From positions 77,985 to 141,984 of the forward strand of contig JALHOM010000001.1 in the NCBI GenBank assembly GCA_022842995.1: a stretch of DNA of 64,000 nucleotides. Reading direction: 5' to 3'. How positions within the stretch are numbered: position 1 is the stretch's first letter; each line of letters begins with the position of its first letter. This DNA is from Candidatus Saccharimonadota bacterium (GTDB lineage: Bacteria; Patescibacteriota; Saccharimonadia; Saccharimonadales; 2-12-FULL-41-12). The notes under the pieces are model-generated. The model saw only the letters and a list, made by a program, of their open reading frames with translations. It was not told the origin of the DNA and made no database searches. Of the stretch, positions 18,260 to 52,424 are shown one piece after another. Position numbers and translations under genes: made by a program.

Positions 18260-19181
18260 GTTGGCAGTGTGGGCAAACATGAGTTCCCCGCCCGGCTACA
18301 CGTGTTTTTTCGATCACTGCACCGCAACGGGGGCACGGCAATTTTTCCCGGCGAAAAACTCGTGCAAAATCCATGTAACTACCCCTTTTGCCTTCGGCAT
18401 TTACATAATTTCTATCTGTAGAACCGCCTTTTTCTATCGCCAAGTTAAGCACAAACTGCAGCTCACGAAACAACGTTTTTAGCTGAGCGGGCGGAATATC
18501 TTTGACGAGAGTAGTCGGGTGGATTTTTGCGCCCCACAAACTTTCGTCGGCGTAGATATTTCCAACGCCAGCAATGACCGTCTGATCCAAAAGTACAGCC
18601 TTGATGTTGCTGTTTTTACGCCTCATGAGCCTATCTATAAATTGAGTAGCTGTAAAATCTGCATCCAGAGGCTCTGGGCCAACCTTTTTAAAGAAATCGA
18701 GTTCTTCGATAGCAATCGTCGGCATTAACCGCACCCAGCCAAACTTACGAAAATCGTTAAAGTACAGATGAGCACCATTGGCAAACGTGAAGGTTACGCG
18801 CGTACTTTTGTCTGGCAATGAACCAATCAAGGAATCGTTCGGATGCCCTGCACCAAAACGTTCCTCCCCGTCCGTCACATCTTTAATCTTTAAACGTGTG
18901 TCTTTAGTCTTTAATCTTTCGTCTTTCGTCTTCACGTACACCATCTGCCCAGTCATCTTAAGATGAATCACCAGCGAATACTGGGTACTCAAATCAATGA
19001 TCAACACCTTAGCACGACGACGAACGGCCGTAACTTGACTACCAATCAAAAAAGCATCGACATCGGCCTGCGCATTCGGAAAAGACTTCGCCCAATCAAA
19101 ATGCAGGTCTTGGAACGAGAGACCGACGATAAGTTTTCGGAGTCCGATTGCGACTGTTTCTACTTCTGGTAGTTCCGGCAT
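18252..19181 (-). CDS. mutM: formamidopyrimidine-DNA glycosylase
   Basis: The start is set at MPELPEVET because the N-terminal Pro is catalytic. C-terminal zinc finger CPRCGAVIEKTRVAGRGTHVCPHCQ. Contains a repeat-derived insertion. Confidence 0.85.
   Translation of the reverse strand: MPELPEVETVAIGLRKLIVGLSFQDLHFDWAKSFPNAQADVDAFLIGSQVTAVRRRAKVLIIDLSTQYSLVIHLKMTGQMVYVKTKDERLKTKDTRLKIKDVTDGEERFGAGHPNDSLIGSLPDKSTRVTFTFANGAHLYFNDFRKFGWVRLMPTIAIEELDFFKKVGPEPLDADFTATQFIDRLMRRKNSNIKAVLLDQTVIAGVGNIYADESLWGAKIHPTTLVKDIPPAQLKTLFRELQFVLNLAIEKGGSTDRNYVNAEGKRGSYMDFARVFRREKLPCPRCGAVIEKTRVAGRGTHVCPHCQLP
18878..18933 (-). repeat. heptamer array inside the mutM coding sequence
   Basis: Eight 7-nt units of the AAAGNNN family (NNNCTTT on the plus strand). 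They encode VKTKDERLKTKDTRLKIKDV. Confidence 0.8.
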
Positions 19182-20127
19182 CTTCTTGAACCTCCTCGGC
19201 AACATTTAAGCTCGGGAATGCCTGCTTTAATGCTTGCATACTCCGACCGGAGAAATTTCGCTGATTAAGAAAACCACCCCCTGCTACTGATACCCTATAT
19301 ATACCGTCTTCCTGAGGGTCAAGGATTAAATCTGATTGCTGCACATTAGGTGTTACAACTTCAAATACAACTGGCCTGTCGCCGTCATGCCCTGTAATAT
19401 TTATTCCCGACTGTCGTTGAGAATATGAACCATAGTCGGCCAACATTCCAAAACGGTTTAGCGCACCACAAAGCTTTATCTCAGCTAAAAGCTGACTTGT
19501 TTTACGCTCGACTACCGCACATCGTCTTCTGCGAGACATCCATCCAAGTGCCGTGTCAGCCGCAAGCCCACCCGAAAATCTAATTATTTCAATTTTATCT
19601 GGCAACTCGAGGCTATCTATTTCCTTAAACGGAGCGGCCAAAAAACTTGTAAGATAACTTCGGAGTAGCGTATCTGCCGAGTATGAATACCGTCTAGAAT
19701 CCTCAACCAACGACGGATCCCAGGCACTGAATTTTGGATAATGCCCTTTTCTAGATCCAACTGTTTCAGACTCTAGAGAGTTCCGCGTTAATTCGGTAAC
19801 TATCGCCCCCGACACCAAACCAGCTAAATGCATGACTATTTCAGGTTTTTCCCTTACTAGAATTGCAGCACCTTCGCTGTCAAATTGTTCAAATCCGTCC
19901 GGCTTGGCAATCATTTTATCTGGGGACTCTAAAATCTTAAGAATCTCGGGCTTGTCATCGTCTGCAATTACATTCACCAAAGAGGTAAATGCCGGCGATA
20001 TCATCGAACGTATCGTATCTAATGCCGAAGCTGGAGGGACATTACCTAAAGAAACTGCTCCATGAGCCGTATCAGGCCCACAAGTAACCACTAGTTCCGT
20101 TTTAAACGGTTCAATTATTCTTACCAC
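19096..20127 (-). CDS. hypothetical protein
   Basis: 343-aa ORF with a GTG start. The last ~28 codons overlap the mutM 5' end in another frame. No family recognised. Confidence 0.5.
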   Translation of the reverse strand: MVRIIEPFKTELVVTCGPDTAHGAVSLGNVPPASALDTIRSMISPAFTSLVNVIADDDKPEILKILESPDKMIAKPDGFEQFDSEGAAILVREKPEIVMHLAGLVSGAIVTELTRNSLESETVGSRKGHYPKFSAWDPSLVEDSRRYSYSADTLLRSYLTSFLAAPFKEIDSLELPDKIEIIRFSGGLAADTALGWMSRRRRCAVVERKTSQLLAEIKLCGALNRFGMLADYGSYSQRQSGINITGHDGDRPVVFEVVTPNVQQSDLILDPQEDGIYRVSVAGGGFLNQRNFSGRSMQALKQAFPSLNVAEEVQEDAGTTRSRNSRNRTPKTYRRSLVPRPAF

Positions 20128-20190
20128 TTGGATGAATTATACGTGGCGGAAGATGATTTTACGTGTTGTAATATTTTTCGCCTTGAAGGG

Positions 20191-20775
20191 CTAGAGACGG
20201 ACGCCAGAGACTGTTCGGTTGTAGTCTGGGATTTGGTCTCGAAACAGAGTGGCCACGAGGCCGCGGTTGCCACTAAAGTTGCCGTCAAGGTTGCCACAGC
20301 TAGATGACCATGAACGTTGCTTGTCGCCAGAGGTATAGCTCACGTCGTAGGCGTAGCGGACACCGGTTACGCAAGAAGCTTTTTCGTCGGTTTTGATCTC
20401 TGGGTTAATAGAAGTGAAACCGGCCGACTCAAGCGCAATAGTAAATGCTTGAAAAGCAGCAACGTTATTGCCAATGGACTTTGAAGAAATAACTTCCTCA
20501 TTATATCCACGGATAATTTCAATTTTGCGTTCGCTAGGAGTAACCGTAATCCGGATCGAACGACGATCTTCCTCGCCCACAACACTACCGATTTGCGTGT
20601 ACTGAACCTGAGCCCCGTCGGAGGAAAGATCGTTCTTTTTGACAGTTTGAGAGGCAGCTGTTTGGGCAACTTGTTCGTTACGATTCCCGCCTCGCAAAAT
20701 AGAGACGATCAACGCAATACCGCCAAAAAACACGACGGCAATAATCACCAAAACCAATATGTACCTCTTAGGCAT
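20191..20775 (-). CDS. hypothetical membrane-anchored protein
   Basis: N-terminal TM YILVLVIIAVVFFGGIALIVSIL followed by a soluble domain. Confidence 0.5.
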   Translation of the reverse strand: MPKRYILVLVIIAVVFFGGIALIVSILRGGNRNEQVAQTAASQTVKKNDLSSDGAQVQYTQIGSVVGEEDRRSIRITVTPSERKIEIIRGYNEEVISSKSIGNNVAAFQAFTIALESAGFTSINPEIKTDEKASCVTGVRYAYDVSYTSGDKQRSWSSSCGNLDGNFSGNRGLVATLFRDQIPDYNRTVSGVRL

Positions 20776-20838
20776 AACCCATATTATACTACTAATCTAT
20801 TGTTTCCGCAAGTGTTTAAACTGTTATAATAGAATTCT

Positions 20839-21078
20839 ATGACCGATTCATTGTCAGATATCCTCGGAAAACGCCAATACTCAGAGCCTCCTGAGGTAGC
20901 CATTATTAAAGAATTCGTCAAAAGCGAAATCGGCGAAACGCCAAAAGTTTCAGTTTCGGGCGGCAACTTCTATGTTCTGATTTCTAGCTCAGCTGCAGCT
21001 GGCAATCTACGCTTTAAGCTGTTCCAGCTCCAGCGTTCACTCGGCCATGCCCACAAGATTATTATTCGCGTTCAATAA
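20839..21078 (+). CDS. small protein, possibly DUF721/DciA-like
   Basis: 79 aa. The pattern KVSVSGGNFYVLISSSAAAGNLRFKLFQLQRSLG resembles the DUF721 core (recalled from memory, not searched). Confidence 0.35.
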   Translation: MTDSLSDILGKRQYSEPPEVAIIKEFVKSEIGETPKVSVSGGNFYVLISSSAAAGNLRFKLFQLQRSLGHAHKIIIRVQ

Positions 21079-21634
21079 GCTGGTCTATAGCCGAAATCGC
21101 CTGATCAGTAGAGGTAAATAACACCGATTGCATACCTACTGCTTCGGCCCCATAACAGTTTCTATCGACGTCATCGACCATGATGCACTCTGGCGCCTGC
21201 ACACCCAATCTTTCAACAATCTGCAGATAAGGTTCTGGTTTTGGTTTAACCTCACCTACCTCATAACTAGGGAGGATGACGTTAAAAATCTTCTGCTCCT
21301 GCAGGTCTAAAAATTTTGCCGTAACCCAATCGTCATTGATATTACTCAGCAGTCCGATCTTTATGCCTTTAGCCTTGAGTCCCCGAGCATAGTCCAGAAG
21401 CTGGGTGTTTTTATCGCTCCTTGGCAAAATAGCACGAGCCACGACAGACTCCTCTATGCCGGCCACTTCTGCGCAAGTAGAGATAAGCTCGGTTTCCGAA
21501 ACGAGACCCTTATCGTAAGCAGCTGTCGTGTCGCGGAGAACCGTCCTAACATCTCCATCGTAACCAGCCATGAATTCACGCCAAATATCAACTGTCAGCA
21601 CGCCAAAACAATCAAAAATCACTGCTTTTATCAT
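21062..21634 (-). CDS. HAD-superfamily hydrolase
   Basis: N-terminal MIKAVIFDCFGVLT motif I and C-terminal MVDDVDRN motif IV. Confidence 0.7.
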   Translation of the reverse strand: MIKAVIFDCFGVLTVDIWREFMAGYDGDVRTVLRDTTAAYDKGLVSETELISTCAEVAGIEESVVARAILPRSDKNTQLLDYARGLKAKGIKIGLLSNINDDWVTAKFLDLQEQKIFNVILPSYEVGEVKPKPEPYLQIVERLGVQAPECIMVDDVDRNCYGAEAVGMQSVLFTSTDQAISAIDQLIERE

Positions 21635-21663
21635 CTATACATCATACCCTATCTGGATACCTT

Positions 21664-21713
21664 GCAGTCTGTACAAGGACTTTCTGTACAAGGACTGTCC
21701 TTGTACAGACTGC
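21664..21713 (-). terminator. 17-bp perfect inverted repeat downstream of the aminotransferase gene
   Basis: GCAGTCTGTACAAGGAC...GTCCTTGTACAGACTGC. A third partial copy, ctgtacaaggac, sits in the loop. Confidence 0.45.
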
Positions 21714-21735
21714 ATTTCTACATTTCAAATTGTTG

Positions 21736-23004
21736 TTAAGGCCGATATGCGGCAGCAATTGTCTGACCCAAAATCTTCATCCCATTCTCGAGCTCATGGT
21801 CCGGGCGAGCAAAATTGAGTCGCACACACTCCCGTGCATGTGGCCACGCGGACGAATCTTGCCCGGCAAAAAAGTATTCGCCCGGCACGACGAGAACTCC
21901 CTTCTCTTTGAGGCGTGCGTAAAGTTCCTTCGAGCCAATAACCGACCCTTCTAGCCAAAGCCAGAAGAAGTAAGAACCTTGGTAGGTGTGCAAGCGCCAC
22001 GGCAAAGATTTGTCGAAATACATCTCGATATACTCCATCGCCACGCGACGGCGATCGGCATAAAACGGCTGAATATAGTCTTGTGACAACCGATCAATTT
22101 CTTTGGTTATGAGTAAATCAGTGACAAGATATTGCCCAAAATTCGGGCTGGATAGCGAAACTATAGCATTAAGCTTACTGAGTGAGCGAATAAGTTCTGG
22201 TGGTCCAACAAAAATCCCTGTTCGCGAGCCAGGCAGGCCAACTTTGGATAAGCTATAGGAAAATACCGTGTTGCCATCGAACTCCACGAAATCGTCGTCC
22301 ACTATGACACCTGGAAATGGCGCGCCGTAAGCATTATCTATGACCAAAGGAATGTCCCGCTCGCGAGCAATTTTTTGCAATCGCTTTACCTCTTCAGTCG
22401 AGACTACATTTCCACTTGGGTTAGTCGGTCTAGATACACAGATTGCTCCCGTATTTTCGTCTATGTCGAGCTGATCAAAATCTATGGAATACTTAAATTC
22501 ATGCTGATCAATTTTAGTAATTATTGGCCTGGTCGAAGTGATCATTTCGTGTTCGGCAAGTTGGTCGCTGTATCCGACATATTCAGGAACTAACGGGAAC
22601 AAAATTTTTCGCCTCGAGTTTCCACTACTACCTGCCAGCATATTAAACAGCATAAAAAAGCCCGTTTGACTGCCAGATGTAATCGCCACGTTTTCGGGCA
22701 GTAGTTTGGTCTCGAAATGACCCGAGAAGTATTCAACCACCGATTCGATAAAAGCACTATTGCCCTGAGGCGTATCATAGGTGCCAAGCATTGCGGCCAA
22801 AGACTCAGGGTCTTTAGAGATTTGATGAAGCCGCGATTTAAAGGCGTCCGTAACTTCCGGAATGATGGCTGGGTTTCCACCGCCAAACATAGCGATCGGT
22901 TCTACGACTCCATTCATCGCATTGCCAAGGTCATCCATAAGCTGCAAAATGCCCGATTCGGTCGTCATTTTTTGTCCAAAGTCTGATAGTTTGTAATGTT
23001 TCAT
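21736..23004 (-). CDS. avtA: valine-pyruvate aminotransferase-like (AvtA family) PLP enzyme
   Basis: 422 aa. It matches my recollection of E. coli AvtA along its length: GGGNPAIIPEV, CVSRPTNPSGNV, PLVIDNAYGAPFPG, SLSKVGLPGSRTG, FFWLWL, GVLVVPG. Confidence 0.8.
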   Translation of the reverse strand: MKHYKLSDFGQKMTTESGILQLMDDLGNAMNGVVEPIAMFGGGNPAIIPEVTDAFKSRLHQISKDPESLAAMLGTYDTPQGNSAFIESVVEYFSGHFETKLLPENVAITSGSQTGFFMLFNMLAGSSGNSRRKILFPLVPEYVGYSDQLAEHEMITSTRPIITKIDQHEFKYSIDFDQLDIDENTGAICVSRPTNPSGNVVSTEEVKRLQKIARERDIPLVIDNAYGAPFPGVIVDDDFVEFDGNTVFSYSLSKVGLPGSRTGIFVGPPELIRSLSKLNAIVSLSSPNFGQYLVTDLLITKEIDRLSQDYIQPFYADRRRVAMEYIEMYFDKSLPWRLHTYQGSYFFWLWLEGSVIGSKELYARLKEKGVLVVPGEYFFAGQDSSAWPHARECVRLNFARPDHELENGMKILGQTIAAAYRP

Positions 23005-23024
23005 AAATTAAGCTCTTTAAAATT

Positions 23025-23056
23025 AAAAAACGGGCTGATCTTTTGTCGATAGCCCG
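23025..23056 (-). terminator. rho-independent terminator-like hairpin inside the avtA leader (attenuator candidate)
   Basis: Minus strand CGGGCT-ATC-gacaaaa-GAT-c-AGCCCG followed by TTTTTTAATTTT, ending 20 nt before the avtA ATG. Confidence 0.45.
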
Positions 23057-23082
23057 CTTGATTTGATACTGATATTTTTAGG

Positions 23083-23145
23083 CTACGACAAAGAATCTCC
23101 CGCGAGGAGCGCAAGCGCCAACTTGTTATTTCCAACGTAACTCAT
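23083..23145 (-). CDS. candidate 20-aa leader peptide MSYVGNNKLALALLAGDSLS
   Basis: The ATG lies 8 nt after a TATAAA -10 element, so the transcript would be leaderless. It has 5 Leu and 3 Ala codons. The stop codon is embedded in a sequence complementary to the terminator's 5' arm. Confidence 0.3.
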   Translation of the reverse strand: MSYVGNNKLALALLAGDSLS

Positions 23146-23153
23146 AGTTGTAG

Positions 23154-23182
23154 TTTATACCTGATCACACAAAGAAATGCAA
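23154..23182 (-). promoter_or_regulatory. promoter candidate for the avtA leader
   Basis: Minus strand TTGCAT-N17-TATAAA. Confidence 0.35.
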
Positions 23183-23204
23183 AATCCGCTACAATAACCT
23201 AGCT

Positions 23205-24224
23205 ATGAGATTACCAGAGATTGAGCGTGATTCACTCCAGCAAGCATTTGACGAAAGAGCCGTTTTGCGCGTAAAAAATGGCGTCGTTGGTAGCAGAATC
23301 GGTAAATTCGCTATCGGCCCTCGCGACTTATCTAACAGAGATCTGAGCACTGATTACACCAGCCTGCAGGTCAACCAAATTCCGGCCGTGGAGGGTCTGA
23401 AAACACCTCTTTCTGATATCGGCGACCATATTGTAAACTTTCCAAATCTAGCACGCGCTCTTAGCGCCAAGCTTTACGAATTTCAAGCATTTAAGTATCC
23501 TCACCTCACTTTAGTGGTCGGACACCAATCTCTCGTAGATGCCGTTCTAGCAGCCTACCTTCTCGCAAAAACGGATTATTTCGAAGAGTACGTTAAGTCT
23601 CCGAGCAATGTACACATAATGCTTGGTAGGATGCTCGCATACTGCGGCTATGGACCATCAAGAACTAGTCTTGTAGAAAGTCTTGTTCGACCAGCTGCTA
23701 ATTCTTATCTTGTAATACCAGAGTCGGCCTCTACTGTAGACCTATTTAAAGACCCGAGATTCACTAAGGGAATTATGTTTTCGAACGGCAGGGCTCGGAG
23801 TGCACATAAAAAGGCTACCTCCAAAGGGCCAAATCAACACGTCACGATTATCGCCCTACCCGGCTCCGAAATGAAAAAGAACGAAGATGACCAAAAAGTA
23901 ATGGGGCCTGTGTCGCCAAGGACAATCGAATTTATAGAAGAACTAAACCGATCCGGGCTCGTGCTCCCCATGGGCATAGACATTAATGAAACCCATGTCT
24001 TGTTATCCAAGATTCCTGGCTTCCCTAAGCCAGTTGGTAGACTTGCCTTAGAGCGACCTTTTATTCCGGAGGGAAGAAGTAAGGGCATAGACCGATATGC
24101 AGAACTACTGATCTACCGGACGCTACAGACCGCGCGAATCGTCGAAGACAAATACATTATCGCCGGATATACGCCCGAATACACCAGCCCCGTCATGCCT
24201 TACGACACCCAACCAGTCTCATGA
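23205..24224 (+). CDS. hypothetical protein, possible LPLAT/PlsC-like acyltransferase
   Basis: HX4D block GHQSLVD. A later ALPGSE block resembles FPEGT, and LVLPMGIDI resembles block IV. Weak, motif-level evidence only. Confidence 0.4.
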   Translation: MRLPEIERDSLQQAFDERAVLRVKNGVVGSRIGKFAIGPRDLSNRDLSTDYTSLQVNQIPAVEGLKTPLSDIGDHIVNFPNLARALSAKLYEFQAFKYPHLTLVVGHQSLVDAVLAAYLLAKTDYFEEYVKSPSNVHIMLGRMLAYCGYGPSRTSLVESLVRPAANSYLVIPESASTVDLFKDPRFTKGIMFSNGRARSAHKKATSKGPNQHVTIIALPGSEMKKNEDDQKVMGPVSPRTIEFIEELNRSGLVLPMGIDINETHVLLSKIPGFPKPVGRLALERPFIPEGRSKGIDRYAELLIYRTLQTARIVEDKYIIAGYTPEYTSPVMPYDTQPVS

Positions 24225-24270
24225 CGGCAATAAAGATGCAGGAGACCTTCGATATTGTGCGTACCACAGC

Positions 24271-25209
24271 TCATCTATCGGGATTGACGCCCATATGCGC
24301 CTCGGTGCGAGAAATATTTGGGTCAATACCAAACGGGTCTGAAAATACGATAATCGCAAGCCTTGGTGGCACATACGTTCCTGGCTCTACTTGTAGCCTC
24401 CTCACTTCGTGTGGTGTGCCTGTTATCCAGTGTTTGTCGCCGTACAGTTTATTAAAACCTAATCCCGGAAATACATAAACCGCACCATCCTCACGTGGCG
24501 GAGCTTCAACTGCATTACCTTGTTTGTCATGCACGACCAAACCATCGGTAGACGCATATACCTGCATAGTCATCGATCCACGATCAATGTGTTGGCCGGC
24601 AACTTTTTTATGGTCAACCTCAGCTTCAGGGCCTTGTACGTATCCGTCGTACATCACAACCCTGAGCAGTGCCGTAGGTTGCACATTATGAGGGTGGTGC
24701 AGATCCATTATGCCAGGGTGTGTATCCTCAAGATGGGAGTAAACATTCTCACGAAATTCATTCAGACAATTTTCTAAAACTTCTCTGCCCGCCTCCAAGA
24801 AATCATCAATCGGTCGTACAATTCCTTTCCTGAGGTACCACTGGCCATATGCCACTGGCGTAATCTGAAAGATCGACTTGGCGTCAGAGACCTGCATACC
24901 AGTAACTGGGTCATGTTTTGCCTCTTTGCGCTCCAAACCATGAAACATCCCCGGCGGATCATCAGGAAAGTTGACACCAAGCTTTCCTAATCGCTTCAAT
25001 AAGTCAGGGTCCTTTAGCGTTCTATCGGTAATTTCGGCAAATTCTTTGACCTCGTCTACGAAAGCAGTGTCAACCCCATGTACATGAAAACCTCGCGTAG
25101 AAAGATTACTCTCAACTTCGGATATTTCGCCTTTTGACTGCGGCTGTCGGGATGGCAGTTCATACCATCCTCTCTCGAGAGCTTCAGCGGGCGACAAGAG
25201 TTGCGACAT
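24271..25209 (-). CDS. 2-oxoglutarate/Fe(II)-dependent oxygenase-like protein
   Basis: 312 aa. HxD (GQHIDRG) and a distal His (TGTPHEVRR) are spaced as in the IPNS/2OG-oxygenase facial triad. Confidence 0.5.
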   Translation of the reverse strand: MSQLLSPAEALERGWYELPSRQPQSKGEISEVESNLSTRGFHVHGVDTAFVDEVKEFAEITDRTLKDPDLLKRLGKLGVNFPDDPPGMFHGLERKEAKHDPVTGMQVSDAKSIFQITPVAYGQWYLRKGIVRPIDDFLEAGREVLENCLNEFRENVYSHLEDTHPGIMDLHHPHNVQPTALLRVVMYDGYVQGPEAEVDHKKVAGQHIDRGSMTMQVYASTDGLVVHDKQGNAVEAPPREDGAVYVFPGLGFNKLYGDKHWITGTPHEVRRLQVEPGTYVPPRLAIIVFSDPFGIDPNISRTEAHMGVNPDR

Positions 25210-25283
25210 ATAATCTCCTATTCATTCAATACTCTCATACTACCTCGCTGGCGTTTGCTTTCAAGAAATTTATGGTGTAATAT

Positions 25284-25646
25284 TTACCGTTTTACTTCCG
25301 CGAAGTAGCTTTCTAAAACATCTGAATCGATAAATTCACCTTCCAAAGACTGCGCTTCTCTTTCGCTCACCCAAGCATAATCATCGTGCTCATCACCGAG
25401 TCGAACCTCAAGACTGGTCGGCTTACAGAGATAGAAAATAGCAATAATCTGCGATTTTACTCCATTAATTGTCGGTGACCATTCCTTGGTGAACACTGGA
25501 CGCAGTGGCTCCACCTCAAGTCCAACCTCTTCTTTTATCTCTCTTTTCAGTCCATCTATATGATTCTCTCCGGGATTAATCCTGCCACCTGGGAGCATAT
25601 ACTTACCAAGCTTTGTGGCGTCGGTATACGTCGTCGCCTCACGCAC
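25284..25646 (-). CDS. Nudix hydrolase (probably frameshifted; the N-terminal strands are encoded upstream in another frame)
   Basis: Nudix box GGRINPGENHIDGLKREIKEEVGLEV. See the finding on 25640-25717. Confidence 0.7.
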   Translation of the reverse strand: MREATTYTDATKLGKYMLPGGRINPGENHIDGLKREIKEEVGLEVEPLRPVFTKEWSPTINGVKSQIIAIFYLCKPTSLEVRLGDEHDDYAWVSEREAQSLEGEFIDSDVLESYFAEVKR

Positions 25647-25718
25647 ATGAGAACTTTCCCGCTTTCGTCAACGAGAACCCCCTTCATAGCAAGAAACTGC
25701 ACAGTACGAGATGCCATA

Positions 25719-26240
25719 CTACACAATCCTTTTCAATGAGTCTTCGTGCCACATGGCAAAATCGATCTGCCTGAAACCATTTCTTTCATAAAAACCCTTT
25801 AGCCACGGTGTATCAGAGTTATATGTCAGCCCCAGATAGGTTATGCCTTTTTGCTTGCAATATTGAACTCTTTTATCGAAGATCTCTCCGCCTATGCCCC
25901 GTTTGCGGTAGTCTGGATGCACCACCAAATCAACCATCTGCGCATGACGGATATTCCCCACGACGAACCCAATTCCGACCAATACTCCTCTGTCTCTGGC
26001 CGTGACAACGCATAAGGCACCGGATATTGCCTCATCCCAAACGGCCTCTTCTGCGTTTCCGTAAGATGCAGCTTCGCGAAGAGCGACTACTTCACTGCCC
26101 TTTACTGATTTATCAAAATCAATGTCGATTCCATCCATCGTTGCCTCTCCTTTTACCAGTAATTGTACGACACAATCACCACTTAGAGCTCGTTTAGTGA
26201 ATGAGTCTTCACTATTTTTGTTCAGTAACGTACGATACAC
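25719..26240 (-). CDS. GNAT-family N-acetyltransferase
   Basis: VVHPDYRKRGIGGEIF acetyl-CoA-binding motif A. Confidence 0.75.
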   Translation of the reverse strand: MYRTLLNKNSEDSFTKRALSGDCVVQLLVKGEATMDGIDIDFDKSVKGSEVVALREAASYGNAEEAVWDEAISGALCVVTARDRGVLVGIGFVVGNIRHAQMVDLVVHPDYRKRGIGGEIFDKRVQYCKQKGITYLGLTYNSDTPWLKGFYERNGFRQIDFAMWHEDSLKRIV

Positions 26241-27595: not shown

Positions 27596-30244
27596 CTAAA
27601 GTTCGCCCCAGTTTTTGCCAATCTTGGTGTCGACCGTTAATTTGACCGGCAGTTTATGTACGTTTTCCATAATTTCTTTGAGTTTATGGGCAATTTCTGC
27701 TGTCTTGTCGTCCGGGGCTTCAACCAATATGGAATCGTGGATTTGTAGCAGCATAAAGGCGTCGCCAACCTCGTCCAGATAATCCTGAACCTTGATCATG
27801 GCAAGCTTCATGAGATCTGCCTCGGTACCCTGAATAGGCATATTGATCGCGGCACGCTCTGCCGCCTGACGCACGATAAAATTAGACGAATGAATATCTG
27901 GCATCGGTCGCCGTCGACCAAATAAAGTCTCGACGTAGCCCTGTTTTTTGGCGATTTCTTTGAGGTGATTCATATAATCGAGCAGTGGTTTACGAAGCTC
28001 GAAGTATTTATCGATAAACTGCTTGGCAGCAACAAATGTCATTCCGGTTGCAGCGCTCAAACCATGCGGGCTCATGCCATACAAAATTCCAAAATTAATC
28101 ACTTTGGCGTCACGTCGCATGGTTTTAGTAACGTCTTCTGGTAAGCGCCCGTAGACCTGTGCAGCAGTTGCGGTGTGAATATCCATATCGGCATTGAACA
28201 TATCTATCAGCTCTTTGTCTTCAGCCAAAACAGCAGCCAGCCTGAGTTCAAACTGGCTATAATCGGCGCTGATGAGGCTGTAGCCCGGGCGCGTGATAAA
28301 GGCTGTGCGAATCCGGTTGCCGAGTTCCGTCCGCGTCGGGATATTTTGCAGATTCGGTTCAAGACTCGATAAACGCCCCGTCTGGGCAGTCGTTAGGCTA
28401 AAGGTGGTATGTAGTCTGTCTTCTGAATCTACCTGGTTTGGTAGCGTCTCGACGTAGGTATTCATGAGTTTCGTTACTTCGCGGTACTGCGTTATCAACT
28501 CTACTATTGGATGGAGAGCACGTAATTTATCCAGCTCGTTGGCCGCCGTAGAATAACCAGTTTTGCCTTTTTTTACACCTTGAGTAGGCAGGCCCAGCTT
28601 CTCGAACAATATGGTCGATAATTGCTGCGGTGACGAAATATTGAACTGTTCATCGGCATGCCCATAAATTTCTTGTTCAAGGTCGGAAATTGTGTCCTTC
28701 AGCTCCTCGGCAAAGTTCTTTAGGTAGTCGCTATCGAGCAAAATTCCCCGATGCTCCATCATGCCGAGCACTGGAATAACCGGCCATTCAATGTCGCTCG
28801 CGAGCTTGATAATCATCGTCAGCTCGCTCATTTGCTCGGACTGCAGGGCGTGAAGTTTGCGAATAATATCAATAATTAATGGCACTCTTTCTAAAAATTC
28901 ATCGGGAGATATCGTATCGAGTTCTACCCCGTCATAGCCCAAATCCGACCGAGCTAAATCAGTGAGAGACTGCTCTCTCCTGAGAGAATTGATCAAAAAT
29001 GCCCCGATCAAAACGTCGTGCGAAACATTGCGGATATCTGCGCCTACTTCACTGGCGACCTCTAGCGATGATTTTAGGTCATGGCCAATAAGTTCAGTCT
29101 TCTCTAGATTTGCCAAAACACGCCGCAGGTCTTCGTCACCCACCCCATCGCTATGAATTACATATATGAGATTCGGTTTCGGAGAGATAACGACGTAGCG
29201 CCAGCGTTTCCCGTGTTTACCCTCGCAGTAACTGTGTATAACAGCCTCTTTCATGTCGGTTGGGATATCTAGTATTCCATCGGGTTTAGTAATGTTTACC
29301 ACCTTGGCCTTGGCAGAAAAATCAAAAGAGGCGGCAGAAGTCTGCACAGCAGATTCATCTACTCGCATAATCTCGGGCAACTGCCGGACCAAGCTCCTAA
29401 ACTCTAGCTTCTGCAACTGCGCCATAACCTTATTGGGATCGCATTTGCTGCCGTCGACCTCCTTAAAATCAAGCTTCAAAGGTGCGTCGGTCCAAATACG
29501 AGCGAGTTCTTTACTTAAATAAGCAGAATCCTTGCCCTCGACCAGTTTTTTATGGGTCGAACCAGAGATTAAATCAATATTTTCATAGATTCCGTCGAGG
29601 GTTTTATGCTCCTGAAGCAGCGCGATGGCTCCTTTTTCGCCAATGCCGGGAACTCCCGGGATATTATCGGAACTATCGCCTTTCAGAGCCTTGAGGTCCA
29701 AAAACTGATCCGGCGTGACACCATATTTCTCGGTAAAGCTTTCTGGGTGATATTCCTCGATACTACTCAGGCCTTTTTTGAGCGCATAGACCTTCACGTG
29801 ACCGTTGATTAGCTGAAGCATATCTAAATCTGAGGTTACGAGTAGTGTCTCGACATCTTTTTCACGAGCCTGCACTGCCAAAGACCCCATAATATCGTCG
29901 GCCTCATAATCATCTAGCTCATACAGAGGCCAGCCAAAGGCATCCAGCAATTCGTGAAGCAATGGTATTTGCGCATAAAAATCTGGTGGGGGCGGCTTGC
30001 GACCAGCTTTATAGGCCGGATACATCTCTAGCCGACGACGAATATTGGTCTTCGGCTTATCCCACGCCACACAGACATAATCTGGCTTCAGGCGCTTAAT
30101 GACTTCCAGGGCCATAACGGCAAAACCATACACTCCACCAGTTGGCGTGCCGTCCTTGGTCGACAGATTTGGCATGGCATAATACCCACGGTAAAAAACC
30201 GATTTTCCGTCGATAATTACTAGTTTTTTCCGAGCCTCACTCAT
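27596..30244 (-). CDS. polA: DNA polymerase I
   Basis: 882 aa with an N-terminal 5' nuclease domain. Pol motifs LISADYSQFELRLAA, RRDAKVINFGILYG and LLQIHDSILVE. Confidence 0.95.
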   Translation of the reverse strand: MSEARKKLVIIDGKSVFYRGYYAMPNLSTKDGTPTGGVYGFAVMALEVIKRLKPDYVCVAWDKPKTNIRRRLEMYPAYKAGRKPPPPDFYAQIPLLHELLDAFGWPLYELDDYEADDIMGSLAVQAREKDVETLLVTSDLDMLQLINGHVKVYALKKGLSSIEEYHPESFTEKYGVTPDQFLDLKALKGDSSDNIPGVPGIGEKGAIALLQEHKTLDGIYENIDLISGSTHKKLVEGKDSAYLSKELARIWTDAPLKLDFKEVDGSKCDPNKVMAQLQKLEFRSLVRQLPEIMRVDESAVQTSAASFDFSAKAKVVNITKPDGILDIPTDMKEAVIHSYCEGKHGKRWRYVVISPKPNLIYVIHSDGVGDEDLRRVLANLEKTELIGHDLKSSLEVASEVGADIRNVSHDVLIGAFLINSLRREQSLTDLARSDLGYDGVELDTISPDEFLERVPLIIDIIRKLHALQSEQMSELTMIIKLASDIEWPVIPVLGMMEHRGILLDSDYLKNFAEELKDTISDLEQEIYGHADEQFNISSPQQLSTILFEKLGLPTQGVKKGKTGYSTAANELDKLRALHPIVELITQYREVTKLMNTYVETLPNQVDSEDRLHTTFSLTTAQTGRLSSLEPNLQNIPTRTELGNRIRTAFITRPGYSLISADYSQFELRLAAVLAEDKELIDMFNADMDIHTATAAQVYGRLPEDVTKTMRRDAKVINFGILYGMSPHGLSAATGMTFVAAKQFIDKYFELRKPLLDYMNHLKEIAKKQGYVETLFGRRRPMPDIHSSNFIVRQAAERAAINMPIQGTEADLMKLAMIKVQDYLDEVGDAFMLLQIHDSILVEAPDDKTAEIAHKLKEIMENVHKLPVKLTVDTKIGKNWGEL

Positions 30245-40095: not shown

Positions 40096-40220
40096 ACCCA
40101 TCAGTTTAAAGATAAAAGAAGAAAGTTGAAAGCAAAAGACAGCAACCAAAGAGCCTTTCTCGCGGTAATATCAAGATACCTTGTTCGAAAAAGCAATTGA
40201 AATCAGATACAATAGTGCTT

Positions 40221-40835
40221 ATGCAACCAAACGGCACAGCCCCACTACCCCCTGACCACGATCCATTTGCCTTTATTACACAAGACAACCCTGTACCCAA
40301 GAAAACACTGGTCAACCCTTCTAGCATGAAGGCGCAGATTGCTATAATTGTCGGCTTTGTCATCTTACTCATAATTGGCGCGATTATTACCGTCAGCTTG
40401 CTCGGTGGTGGAGACAAAGATAGAACCCAAAGTTACATCGAGATCTCGCAACGCCAAACCGAAATCATCCGCATTAGTGCCCTTGCCAGCGAAAAAGCCA
40501 AAAGTCTTGAGACAAAATCACTCGCCTACACCACCAACCTGGCTGTTTCGTCTTCGCAAAAAGAGCTAACGACCATTCTCGTAAAGCGCGGCGTTACCGA
40601 AAAAGCCCTTGCCAAAGAGCTTGGCGCTCTCAAAAATAGCAAAAGCGACGAACTACTCGCCGAGGCCGAACGCAACAACCGCTACGACGAAACTTTCAAA
40701 GAAATATTAAACACCGAACTCACTAACTACCAAAAACAACTCAACGCCGTATCTGGTGGGGCTAAAAAATCGGAGTTCGCCGTCCTCGAAAAGTCCTTCA
40801 ACCAGATCTCGGTCATCCAAAAATCAGATAAATAG
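40221..40835 (+). CDS. hypothetical single-pass membrane protein
   Basis: The start is moved to MQPNGT. TM helix IAIIVGFVILLIIGAIITVSLL. Confidence 0.5.
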   Translation: MQPNGTAPLPPDHDPFAFITQDNPVPKKTLVNPSSMKAQIAIIVGFVILLIIGAIITVSLLGGGDKDRTQSYIEISQRQTEIIRISALASEKAKSLETKSLAYTTNLAVSSSQKELTTILVKRGVTEKALAKELGALKNSKSDELLAEAERNNRYDETFKEILNTELTNYQKQLNAVSGGAKKSEFAVLEKSFNQISVIQKSDK

Positions 40836-41500: not shown

Positions 41501-41552
41501 AAAAAACATGTAAAAATTGTACGCGATCGTGTAAAACTTTTACATGTTTTTT
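41501..41552. promoter_or_regulatory. 52-nt palindrome in a divergent intergenic region
   Basis: AAAAAACATGTAAAA...TTTTACATGTTTTTT (15-nt arms) enclosing TACGCGA/TCGTGTA. It looks like a bidirectional terminator on both strands. Confidence 0.4.
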
Positions 41553-41956: not shown

Positions 41957-41986
41957 ACCTAGGCTAGTCGCGCATGGCGCCTAGGT
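41957..41986. terminator. hairpin spanning the orn stop codon between convergent genes
   Basis: ACCTAGGC-14 nt-GCCTAGGT. Confidence 0.4.
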
Positions 41987-42512
41987 AATACTGAAGTTCA
42001 GCAATACTTGCCTGTATATCATCGAAAGCTCGGTGCACTTCCTTCTTGCTGAAGTTAATTCCTTTACTCTGCATAACAATTTTAAAGCTACTGACATCCA
42101 GCATGCGGTAATGGAGTAATTCTTCAACCTCTGGCCACCACTGACGAATAAATATCCGGTCATTATGAATAGAGTTTCCAGCTAAAACTGCTGGCTCATC
42201 ACCAAACTGCGCTTTAATAAAACCCACTACTTCATGGATGACGTCACGCTCGCCCTGACCGCTAACGCGGATTCGCTCGGTTAAACCACTTTTTTCGTGG
42301 TGCTCTTTGGCCCAGGGGTGCATGTTTTCCAAAACTTCATCGCTTTGTGCAATCACTGCTTCGTAACTTGCCAGGGTCTTAAAATCAAAGTCAGTGACCT
42401 CGGCCGCGATTTCCAAAATCCTGTCATTTTCGGGGTCAAGGCCGGTCATTTCTAGGTCTACCCAAAAAAGTTTTGTTGGCAAACGGTTTTTGTCGATATT
42501 GGGGACACTCAT
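41964..42512 (-). CDS. orn: oligoribonuclease
   Basis: LFWVDLEMTGLDPENDRILEIA DEDDh exonuclease motif. 182 aa. Confidence 0.9.
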   Translation of the reverse strand: MSVPNIDKNRLPTKLFWVDLEMTGLDPENDRILEIAAEVTDFDFKTLASYEAVIAQSDEVLENMHPWAKEHHEKSGLTERIRVSGQGERDVIHEVVGFIKAQFGDEPAVLAGNSIHNDRIFIRQWWPEVEELLHYRMLDVSSFKIVMQSKGINFSKKEVHRAFDDIQASIAELQYYLGAMRD

Positions 42513-45770: not shown

Positions 45771-46457
45771 TTAGCTTTTGGTTTTACCGGCCTGCTCGAG
45801 CAAGCGACCATATTCCCACACCACGAAATAGACCACACTGATCAATCCAAAGAATATCAACGTCGTTACATACGTCTGCGTATGAGCAAGCGGATTAACA
45901 ATTCGATCACTCACATCGAACAGCAAACCAGCTGGTCTCAGCAAAATATCCCAGGTATTCCAGCGGGAATATCGGCCCAAATAAATCGCAAAGCTCACCA
46001 GAAGTATCAGCATACTAATTACCGACCACGAGATAGTTGTCGAGAGCCGTTTATGTAGCTCGCGGTGCACTATATAAATACTGGTATAGCCCAAAATCAT
46101 GCCGCTTACGGCAAATGCCATGATCAGCACCGCATCATAAAGCACTGCTACCTCGTAAGTTCGGCCCAGATGAATAAAATCCGTCACAATATAAAAACTA
46201 TTCGGCAAAAAAACTAACCAAAGAAAAGTCAAAACTAGCTGTTGCCATGCACCCCACCCGCTGCTACGGATTCGGTGCACCAACCACCAAGCTAGCAACG
46301 GCGCCACGGCAGCTAAAGCCAGATTCCATATCAAAAACAAAAACCGACTGCTATCGCTTTCAAGGTAACGCGCCAGCACCATAAAGATCGAAAACCCGAC
46401 CACACCAAAAAGACTTATTATAAAGCGCTTCGGACTTGGGTTAGCTGTTTTGGTCAT
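45771..46457 (-). CDS. polytopic membrane protein (DUF1361-like)
   Basis: Six or more hydrophobic helices. FLIWNLALAAVAPLL resembles the DUF1361 signature as I recall it. Confidence 0.5.
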   Translation of the reverse strand: MTKTANPSPKRFIISLFGVVGFSIFMVLARYLESDSSRFLFLIWNLALAAVAPLLAWWLVHRIRSSGWGAWQQLVLTFLWLVFLPNSFYIVTDFIHLGRTYEVAVLYDAVLIMAFAVSGMILGYTSIYIVHRELHKRLSTTISWSVISMLILLVSFAIYLGRYSRWNTWDILLRPAGLLFDVSDRIVNPLAHTQTYVTTLIFFGLISVVYFVVWEYGRLLEQAGKTKS

Positions 46458-50988: not shown

Positions 50989-51104
50989 TTCTTATCTTCT
51001 CCTAAAACTACTTCACTTGATAGGAAATGTAGTTATAACACGTCCTTTTTGGCTATTTTACTACAAAGTGGCTAGTTTATCAAGTTCTCGGTTTTTTGAA
51101 AATA

Positions 51105-51137
51105 AAATGACCCCGAGGATTTTGCCTGGGGTCATTT
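51105..51137. terminator. bidirectional rho-independent terminator
   Basis: AAATGACCCC-13 nt-GGGGTCATTT, flanked by A-runs and T-runs. Confidence 0.6.
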
Positions 51138-51155
51138 TATTTGCTGATTTATAGC

Positions 51156-51428
51156 TTAGGGTTTTGGTTTGCGGACTTTGAGAAGTGCAACACCGACTAC
51201 AACGCCAATTACCGCAGTAACAAGCTGGGCAATCAGGAAGTCGCTTGGCATGCCTGCGTCACCATACATACTGTCGTTAGACGAGAACCAGGGTGTTATG
51301 TAGGTTGAAAGAGTACCGAGTACGTATTGAGCACTGGTTCCGATGATTACTGCGGCGGTTATGGTACCAAACCAATAATCAACAACGCCCGTGGACTTAA
51401 CTTTTTTTGAAGTGACTTTTTTAGCCAT
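51156..51428 (-). CDS. small membrane protein
   Basis: 90 aa with two or three hydrophobic helices. Confidence 0.45.
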   Translation of the reverse strand: MAKKVTSKKVKSTGVVDYWFGTITAAVIIGTSAQYVLGTLSTYITPWFSSNDSMYGDAGMPSDFLIAQLVTAVIGVVVGVALLKVRKPKP

Positions 51429-51512
51429 ATTTACTCCTTAAATATTGATTTAAGGTTATGCTAAAATGCGCTCAACGTCAATTGCCGTTTACGTAAAGCG
51501 CGGGAGAGACAA

Positions 51513-52424
51513 TTAGCCCAGACCCCTGCCACAATGCGGGAACGCCCCTAGGCCTTGTCTGCCGTACCAAATTCCACGTATAGCGATTAAGTCATACTCG
51601 CCTTGCTTTAGAATTCTTGTATTGAACGGCACGCCTCGATATCCATAAAGCTGCTCAACATCGGGAGCATGATTGTCTACGTATCCCCCTTCAGAATCAA
51701 ACTGATATGGACCTATATAATGGCCACCAGGAGAAACTGCGTCCACTCTATCTCCAGACTCACAATTACTCAAAGATTTCAAAACATATCTCCTAGCCGG
51801 GATTAAGTGTTTGAGTATCTGCTCACGGGGAGGAGCGAATCCGTAAACAGGATCGTATGGAACTCTAAAATACAGCCAGTCTGGCAATGGACCTAGTGGT
51901 AAATTGCGTGAACGAACGGGCTTTCGTTTGGCCTCGTTCCAGAACATCGTGTTCTTATCTTTCCAGTCGTTGAAGCCCGGTTTAAAACCGACTTTCTTCC
52001 AGCCACCGACTGGCACGTAATCAGGACCCCGCTTTTCCGGGCAAAACCGTGGGCCTGGCTTCGGCGTAACCCGACATCGCTTGGTAACTTTACGAATATA
52101 TTCGGCGCTAGCGGTTGAGGTTTCGCTTTTTTGCTCAGTCTCTTGGGCATGCGACATTACACGCACATTACCTGCGACCATTAAACTTCCCAGTGGTCGC
52201 GCCGGGGTTAATCTTCCCTCGGAGGCATCAAAACCTGCCAGTTGATCTGGATTACCTTGCTTTGTTGGTGACGCTGCATGAAGTTCCGGTACCTGTGCAG
52301 CCATAAGACCGCCACCGAAACTAATTGCACCTATCATAACCGCTGTGGAGCCTATTGCACTCCGTCGTAACCATGACATTTCTGGTGATCTGGTGCCATC
52401 CGAGCCTTTGCTCAAACGAACCAT
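51513..52424 (-). CDS. secreted protein with a transglycosylase-like (Rpf-type) C-terminal region
   Basis: N-terminal signal/TM. SNCESGDRVDAVSPGGHYIGPYQFDSEGGY resembles the CES...GxYQF core of Rpf-like domains. Confidence 0.45.
   Translation of the reverse strand: MVRLSKGSDGTRSPEMSWLRRSAIGSTAVMIGAISFGGGLMAAQVPELHAASPTKQGNPDQLAGFDASEGRLTPARPLGSLMVAGNVRVMSHAQETEQKSETSTASAEYIRKVTKRCRVTPKPGPRFCPEKRGPDYVPVGGWKKVGFKPGFNDWKDKNTMFWNEAKRKPVRSRNLPLGPLPDWLYFRVPYDPVYGFAPPREQILKHLIPARRYVLKSLSNCESGDRVDAVSPGGHYIGPYQFDSEGGYVDNHAPDVEQLYGYRGVPFNTRILKQGEYDLIAIRGIWYGRQGLGAFPHCGRGLG

Follow-up and report, generated by a model that had tools for sequence, protein, structure and literature searches.

The avtA gene in a 64,000-nucleotide (nt) stretch of DNA from a Candidatus Saccharimonadota bacterium (contig JALHOM010000001.1, positions 77,985 to 141,984; here called the window) is preceded by a leader with a mini-open reading frame (mini-ORF), a putative intrinsic terminator, and a putative antiterminator. 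The sequence analysis and the comparison with related loci indicated that this leader is probably a ribosome-mediated (leader-peptide) transcription attenuator that controls avtA. We infer that the sensed signal is the charging of Leu-tRNA and Ala-tRNA, and probably that of Ile-tRNA and Val-tRNA. We also infer, from the sequence, that transcription starts close to the mini-ORF, that the mini-ORF is translated, and that transcription can terminate ahead of avtA.

In the proposed mechanism, transcription would start at the mini-ORF AUG or a few nt from it, and the peptide would be translated from a leaderless mRNA. When charged Leu-tRNA and Ala-tRNA (and probably charged Ile-tRNA and Val-tRNA) are plentiful, the ribosome would reach the UAG codon and cover the 13-nt antiterminator strand. 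With this strand covered, the terminator hairpin would form and RNA polymerase would stop at the T6 tract. When any one of these tRNAs is poorly charged, the ribosome would stall within LALALLA, at a distance of about 10 nt or more from the antiterminator strand farther downstream. The free strand would then pair with the emerging 5' arm of the terminator, no terminator would form, and avtA would be transcribed and subsequently translated via its own weak Shine-Dalgarno sequence. The additional AvtA would re-balance alanine versus the branched-chain amino acids, valine included (Val + pyruvate <-> 2-ketoisovalerate + Ala). The coordinates of the features are listed in Table 1.

Table 1. Features of the avtA leader and the flanking genes, in window coordinates
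Feature	Coordinates	Strand	Basis or remark
-35-like hexamer TTGCAT	23177..23182	-	Sequence; 17-nt spacer to -10
-10 hexamer TATAAA	23154..23159	-	8 nt (CTACAACT) before mini-ORF ATG at 23145
Leader mini-ORF, 20 codons + TAG, MSYVGNNKLALALLAGDSLS*	23083..23145	-	Translation
LALALLA run, codons 9-15, UUG GCG CUU GCG CUC CUC GCG	23101..23121	-	Proposed regulatory codons
Small hairpin CUUGCG/CGCGGG in mini-ORF	23099..23115	-	Consensus scan and partial-transcript fold; possible pause hairpin
Shine-Dalgarno-like GGGAG inside mini-ORF	23097..23101	-	8 nt upstream of last sense codon
Antiterminator 5' strand UUUGUCGUAGCCU	23080..23092	-	Includes stop codon
Antiterminator 3' strand GGGCUAUCGACAAA	23042..23055	-	Terminator 5' arm and loop
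Intrinsic terminator hairpin	23030..23057	-	5' arm 23057-23048, loop 23047-23041, 3' arm 23040-23030
T6 tract	23025..23030	-	Ends 20 nt before avtA ATG
Weak Shine-Dalgarno-like AAAGAG of avtA	23013..23018	-	Sequence
avtA, 422 aa, valine--pyruvate transaminase	21736..23004	-	NCBIfam NF006964 equivalog
Divergent 339-aa gene, apparently soluble	23205-24224	+	ORF

A large protein search with AvtA yielded six close relatives (60 to 76% identical; GC, 37 to 47%), and their metagenomic loci (L081, L082, L083, L084, L085, and L173) were compared with the window. Counts out of seven below refer to this set. All six relatives carried a -10 box, a mini-ORF, a TAG stop codon, a run of Leu, Ala, Val, or Ile (L/A/V/I) residues, an antiterminator at the stop codon, and a terminator followed by a T run. 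The absence of the mini-ORF or of the pairing segments from orthologous avtA leaders had been named beforehand as a refutation of attenuation; the mini-ORF and both helices were retained in six of the six closest AvtA loci.

The seven leader-linked AvtAs formed an exclusive clade in a neighbour-joining tree. Just outside this clade, no leader was found at L166, L167, L169, L170, L174/L175, or the Saccharimonadales metagenome-assembled genomes (MAGs) L001 to L003; the loci examined for P0009, P0010, P0011, P0015, and P0032, which were without the leader, marked the edge of the clade. In a GTDB scan with AvtA, the best relatives were 44 to 53% identical (Saccharimonadales MAGs among the species representatives, 50 to 53%), the nearest lacked the leader, and relatives at this distance were too remote for leader comparison. 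A metagenome scan by AvtA alignment gave, among the matches listed, only sequences of 49% identity or less, which were used solely as outgroups. Another 139 avtA loci, including those of Proteobacteria, were scanned without a model; none had a comparable leader, and a hairpin with a T run within 70 nt of the avtA start was present in only 4 of the 139. When a covariance model of the seven leaders (R1) was run against the window and 98 loci, it recovered the training leaders only, and no second copy was found in the window.

Rfam searches were made as well. At E <= 10, positions 20000 to 26000 of the window returned nothing relevant, T-box included, and gave one chance microRNA match inside another gene; the whole window gave no match at the gathering score. 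A T-box or riboswitch was considered and rejected, since there was no Rfam match and no conserved aptamer-sized structure.

The preliminary description had proposed a promoter (TTGCAT-N17-TATAAA) with a mini-ORF starting 8 nt downstream, and a check of the sequence located the promoter elements, the ATG, and the encoded peptide exactly as described. The -35 hexamer and the 17-nt spacing were kept in L081 and L082, in which the sequence of the spacer varied, and L173 had the promoter-like sequence TTGCAA-N17-TATACA. In all seven leaders, a -10-like hexamer was located 5 to 8 nt ahead of the mini-ORF ATG, and no Shine-Dalgarno sequence preceded the mini-ORF. Each leader contained an in-frame mini-ORF of 16 to 23 codons that ended in TAG. 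The leader peptides of the relatives were MSYQTNEIRAIAALALLAGDFLS (L081), MSYRTNEIRAIVALALLAGDSLS (L082), MIKTISSNSVLLLAEALV (L083), MNKLNSSIILLALAGEVSAA (L084), MMKKLSSTIIALALAGEVSAT (L085), and MIKAINNVVLLAGVRL (L173). The mini-ORF of the window and those of L081 and L082 differed in length by 9 nt, which preserved the reading frame.

The close spacing between the -10 box and the ATG was not confined to this leader. Among 54 ORFs of the window, a TANNNT hexamer ended 5 to 10 nt before the start codon in 23 cases, compared to about 11 expected from flanking positions, and many of the 23 hexamers were near-perfect TATAAT boxes. These counts point to frequent leaderless mRNAs in this Saccharimonadales-like genome. 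GroEL and other window genes had a GGAG-type Shine-Dalgarno sequence in place of the start-proximal box. At the leader-free loci L001 to L003, L166, L167, and L170, a -10 box ended 6 to 7 nt before the ATG of avtA itself (L169 was ambiguous). In the leader-bearing clade, the mini-ORF takes the place after the -10 box that avtA holds in the leader-free loci. Examples of window genes with a box before the start and without a Shine-Dalgarno sequence are located at 19096-20127, 20191-20775, 27596-30244, 45771-46457, and 51513-52424, all on the minus strand.

The mini-ORF had also been described as Leu/Ala rich. This was borne out for the window; across the family, the run consisted of Leu and Ala plus Ile and Val, rather than of Leu and Ala only. 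The hydrophobic runs of the seven leaders were LALALLA, AIAALALLA, AIVALALLA, VLLLA, IILLALA, IIALALA, and VVLLA. Among random 19-mers with the amino acid composition of the window, 0.2% had a Leu/Ala run of at least 5 residues (P = 0.002), and a run of at least 6 L/A/V/I residues occurred in 1% of random peptides of that composition (P = 0.01). Between subclades, the Leu/Ala run was preserved by different codons (CUU/CUA and GCG/GCA).

Exactly one G-rich, Shine-Dalgarno-like motif (GGGAG, AGGAG, GGAGG, or GGGGG) was found inside each of the seven mini-ORFs, just after the hydrophobic run and 5 to 11 nt before the last sense codon; the expectation is about 0.07 such motifs per 10-nt zone. The motif may pause the ribosome, or it may hold it by a tether on the antiterminator strand at termination of translation. 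Alternatively, it could be the 3' arm of the small pause hairpin at 23115-23099, or it could merely reflect the conserved Ala-Gly-Asp/Glu codons.

The terminator proposed in the preliminary description, including the distance of its T run from the avtA ATG, was found (arms, GCGGGCUAUC/GAUCAGCCCGU). The 38-nt stretch that contains the hairpin (23062-23025) had a folding energy of -15.9 kcal/mol, which corresponded to z = -5.6, and 0 of 200 shuffled sequences folded as well. A simple consensus scan missed this terminator because its loop exceeds 8 nt. In the seven leaders, the core terminator hairpins had energies of -9.8 to -16.0 kcal/mol, each was followed by T4 to T6, and the T run ended 18 to 26 nt before avtA. 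The RNAalifold consensus of the seven terminators had five pairs, and four of the five were changed on both sides. The leader terminator was the sole intergenic hairpin-plus-T-run in the window that was located away from a gene 3' end; elsewhere, this genome uses ordinary intrinsic terminators after genes. We rejected the idea that the hairpin is the terminator of an upstream gene, since that gene points away from avtA in the window and in L081, L082, L083, and L173.

Pairing between the stop region of the mini-ORF and the 5' arm of the terminator had been put at 9 bp, namely, GUCGUAGCC (23089-23081) with GGCUAUCGAC (23054-23045). These segments were complementary, and the best duplex was longer than that: the two antiterminator strands in Table 1 formed 13 bp with one bulge (-18.2 kcal/mol), and 1 of 500 shuffles was as good. 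The minimum free energy (MFE) fold of the whole leader was the antiterminator, in which the end of the mini-ORF pairs with the terminator region, and not the terminator. Partial transcripts, which were defined as the leader without the 3' arm of the terminator, were also folded. In seven of the seven MFE folds of partial transcripts, the 5' arm of the terminator paired with a segment that overlapped or abutted the stop codon.

The sequences of the antiterminator helix differed by subclade (GUCGUAGCC:GGCUAUCGAC, GGCGGCU:AGCCGCU, UUUCGGCGACUUAG:UUAGGUCGCUGAAA, and UGUAGCUU:GGGCUACA), and each 5' strand fit its own terminator. The mean duplex energy was -15.7 kcal/mol for cognate or same-subclade combinations versus -8.9 kcal/mol for combinations between subclades. 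Within subclades, reading the sequences together with the partial-transcript folds revealed three-way compensatory changes. Between L084 and L085, a G-to-A change in the antiterminator strand was accompanied by a C-to-U change in the 5' arm of the terminator and a G-to-A change in the 3' arm; the change in the antiterminator strand also replaced the last codon, GCU (Ala), by ACU (Thr). Between L083 and L173, the corresponding changes were C to U, G to A, and C to U.

The geometry of the ribosome was evaluated on the assumption that a ribosome covers about 12 nt past the first nucleotide of its A site. Under this assumption, in seven of the seven leaders, a stall at essentially any codon of the run would free the antiterminator strand, and once the stop codon had entered the A site, the ribosome would cover the strand fully. 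The logic put forward in the preliminary description (an antiterminator freed by a stall and masked upon arrival of the ribosome at the stop codon) fit all seven leaders.

Several observations weighed against the attenuator interpretation. The seven leaders came from only three or four independent lineages, and the promoter was below the threshold of a simple consensus scan (the -35 hexamer matches at 3/6 positions and the -10 hexamer ends in A). The whole-leader MFE had a z of only -1.3 versus shuffles, and the antiterminator duplexes of L083 and L173 were no better than shuffles (143/500 and 100/500, respectively). RNAalifold, when applied to the partial transcripts, gave no column-wise antiterminator consensus, because the register of the helix relative to the stop codon shifts by 3 to 6 nt between subclades, as seen upon inspection of the alignment. 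In addition, no clear anti-antiterminator was found in the leader, unlike in the trp/his paradigm, and the hairpin within the mini-ORF (23115-23099) left the core antiterminator strand unsequestered. A leader that is not translated would therefore be expected to adopt the antiterminator fold, and read-through would be predicted. In the case of the peptide, the total Leu plus Ala enrichment was moderate (p of about 0.01 to 0.1 per peptide), and the runs also contained Ile and Val, which leaves the signal amino acid uncertain. Finally, the three closest leaders shared every nucleotide of the core GCGCUUGCGCUCCUCGCGGGAGAU, with zero synonymous changes, which also fits a pure RNA constraint.

The moderate Leu/Ala enrichment would also fit a translation-dependent switch that does not sense tRNA charging. 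In this explanation, which we consider unlikely, a programmed pause or arrest of the ribosome would be caused either by a conserved peptide (…L-A-[G/E]-[D/E]…) or by the Shine-Dalgarno-like motif inside the mini-ORF, and a small molecule or the overall speed of translation would modulate the pausing, as in tnaC or ermC-type leaders. The motif that follows the run (AGD, AGE, AE, or AG) and the single G-rich motif, both of which were present in all seven mini-ORFs, are consistent with such a switch. However, the conserved part of the peptide was mainly the run of amino acids linked to the AvtA reaction, and the C-terminal residues varied freely where RNA pairing demanded it, as in the Ala-to-Thr change (GCU to ACU) between L084 and L085. 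Moreover, we identified neither a ligand nor an arrest motif of a known type.

The invariant core in the three closest leaders, the default folding of the untranslated leader into the antiterminator, and the lack of a Shine-Dalgarno sequence before the mini-ORF would all be compatible with an element that acts as RNA only (a small riboswitch, for example) or by binding a protein (as the target of an RNA-binding regulator), in which the mini-ORF is incidental and untranslated. We regard this as very unlikely. The 5' half of the leader varied in sequence and length and yet always remained in frame; the ATG was 5 to 8 nt from the -10 box, and the TAG overlapped or abutted the antiterminator in seven of seven leaders; and between subclades, the run was conserved as amino acids while the codons differed. 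Furthermore, the Rfam search described above gave no family match, and no conserved aptamer-sized structure was found.

The promoter, mini-ORF, and terminator make up a complete transcription unit, and they could therefore be an independent small gene for a small hydrophobic protein or an RNA of about 120 nt, with avtA expressed from its own start or by constitutive read-through. A terminated attenuator RNA and a leader peptide that can act in trans (rnTrpL and peTrpL) have been described elsewhere in bacteria. Nevertheless, an independent gene seems highly improbable. The T run ends only 18 to 26 nt before the start codon of avtA, an interval with no conserved promoter, and the position directly after the -10 box, which avtA occupies in the leader-free relatives, is held by the mini-ORF here. 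Moreover, a conserved antiterminator would have no purpose in a stand-alone gene, and a hydrophobic run of 5 to 9 residues is, by our own estimate, too short to span a membrane. Overall, these three explanations accounted less well than leader-peptide attenuation for the conservation of the reading frame, the constant spacing between the -10 box and the ATG, the stop codon that overlaps or abuts the antiterminator, and an interval too short for a separate avtA promoter.

Leader-peptide attenuation is a textbook mechanism, with reports from only a few phyla. In Escherichia coli trpL, region 2 can pair with region 3, the 5' arm of the terminator, unless it is masked by a ribosome that has reached the stop codon; a stall at the upstream regulatory codons frees region 2, and the stop codon is located roughly 45 to 60 nt before the terminator. 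The avtA leader would work like trpL in that the antiterminator segment would be masked upon arrival of the ribosome at the stop codon and freed by an upstream stall. Unlike the avtA leader, trpL has a Shine-Dalgarno sequence, a 1:2 pause/anti-antiterminator hairpin (which causes termination when the leader is untranslated), and two Trp codons. The E. coli ilvGMEDA and ilvBN operons have multivalent leaders that mix Leu, Ile, and Val codons. As for avtA itself, the E. coli gene is reported to be repressed by alanine and leucine, and it is not known to have an attenuator; a 1984 paper by Whalen and Berg is entitled "Gratuitous repression of avtA". The likeness to E. coli avtA is in the gene family and in the reported negative signals Ala and Leu; it is one of physiological signal and does not extend to the mechanism.

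The closest documented analogue was ilvBNC of Corynebacterium glutamicum. According to PMC11857589, which cites Morbach et al. 2000, the leader peptide IlvL (MTIIRLVVVTARRLP) is translated without a ribosome-binding site from a transcript that starts one nt from the start codon; this provides a functional precedent for leaderless leader peptides. The avtA leader shares with ilvBNC the mixed branched-chain regulatory codons, the competing terminator and antiterminator, and the proposed leaderless start, which for avtA is suggested by the -10 spacing and the lack of a Shine-Dalgarno sequence. Unlike avtA of the window, ilvBNC is in another phylum (Actinobacteria) and controls ilvB, and the two leaders have no sequence similarity. 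The ilvBNC leader is 292 nt long with three hairpins that include the anti-antiterminator H1 (PMC11857589), whereas the avtA leader is about 120 nt long and only two competing helices were found. A start-codon mutation lowers expression in ilvBNC (PMC11857589), whereas the loss of translation is predicted to raise avtA read-through.

A leucine-rich attenuator peptide has also been described for Staphylococcus aureus ilv-leu (PMC5794164). The avtA leader is similar to those of ilvGMEDA, ilvBN, and ilv-leu in its mixed Leu, Ile, and Val codons and in the proposed control of a branched-chain gene by attenuation; it differs from the leaders of these biosynthetic operons in that it precedes a single aminotransferase gene, in a lineage in which most amino acid biosynthesis is lacking, has prominent Ala codons, and would be leaderless. 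A 2010 survey noted that leader-peptide systems had previously been known only in Proteobacteria and Actinobacteria, and it added Firmicutes (PMC2965389). PMC4094517 contained nothing on repression, leucine, or Lrp. Full-text searches with incomplete coverage found no avtA attenuator and no description of leader-peptide attenuation in Saccharibacteria, Patescibacteria, or the Candidate Phyla Radiation; because the coverage was incomplete, this is an absence of evidence only. The class of mechanism is well known; the interest of this case lies in the lineage and in the regulated gene.

We also considered a bolder reading, which we regard as rather unlikely: these leaders may represent a stripped-down family with a leaderless ORF, two helices, no anti-antiterminator, and a Shine-Dalgarno-like tether, and it may be the first amino-acid-sensing leader-peptide attenuator family documented in the Candidate Phyla Radiation (Saccharibacteria). 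In such a family, the internal motif would hold the terminating ribosome over the antiterminator strand long enough for RNA polymerase to clear the terminator. These reduced genomes would then have kept a tight transcription-translation coupling, and the interconversion of Ala and branched-chain amino acids would be regulated by tRNA charging.

Saccharibacteria live as ultra-small epibionts; hardly any regulators can be recognised in them, and they have little amino acid biosynthesis. If the attenuator interpretation is correct, these bacteria would monitor tRNA charging and would couple translation to transcription on leaderless mRNAs. The alanine/valine transaminase would then be tuned to the amino acid supply. 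The leader would also be a compact, easily mutated cis-element of about 120 nt for regulation tests, either in Saccharibacteria that can be cultivated or in heterologous hosts capable of leaderless translation.

The identity of the downstream gene, which had been described as avtA-like, could be made more precise. In an NCBIfam search, its product cleared the cut-off of the valine--pyruvate transaminase equivalog NF006964 (517.6 bits versus 467) and scored 433.4 against NF006967 (cut-off, 402). Because residues S7, D8, F9, and G10 are invariant among AvtA homologues, the start of avtA was assigned to the ATG at 23004. The database copy of AvtA (P0001, NCBI, 410 aa) begins 12 codons late (window 22969-23004, minus strand), at the internal Met13, and the Joint Genome Institute (JGI) gene call for L081 stretches avtA 38 codons upstream across the leader to give 460 aa. 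Most leader-bearing members had a weak Shine-Dalgarno sequence before avtA (AAAGAG, AAAGAAG, AAGAAG, or AAAGGA); AAAGGA was present in L084 and L085 at the position that matches AAAGAG of the window, and none was evident in L083 or L173.

The leader fills a 200-nt gap between avtA and the divergent 339-aa gene. The product of the latter matched no Pfam or NCBIfam family. In L081, L082, L083, and L173, avtA was also adjoined by a divergent gene that was similar in length and matched no Pfam family; it may be homologous to the 339-aa gene. A conserved TACAAT is located 9 nt upstream of the ATG of the 339-aa gene; thus, the two divergent genes appear to have back-to-back promoters of the leaderless type. 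Other genes in the window encode GroEL, DNA polymerase I, DnaG, ArgRS, and Fpg. The GroEL was about 80% identical to proteins named Candidatus Saccharimonadales bacterium, and there were no other organism-named matches. Together with the AvtA matches, this makes a Saccharibacteria (TM7, Candidate Phyla Radiation) genome the most likely source of the window. Across the lineage, avtA tends to be located a few genes downstream of the DNA polymerase I and NUDIX hydrolase genes (L084, L085, L166, L167, L169, and L174; window 27596-30244, minus strand), and this neighbourhood is kept even where the leader is absent.

Two other regions of the window had prominent hairpins. The 525-nt gap at 50989-51512 (minus strand), downstream of 51513-52424, contained no ORF of at least 120 aa and gave no Rfam match at gathering scores. 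It had several strong hairpins followed by T runs (51468-51501 and 51103-51139, the latter with -20 kcal/mol), and it may harbor an unannotated small RNA or stacked terminators. A long palindromic hairpin was located at 41507-41546, between the convergent genes at 40197-40835 (plus strand) and 41964-42512 (minus strand). It was flanked by T6 on each strand and looks like a bidirectional intrinsic terminator.

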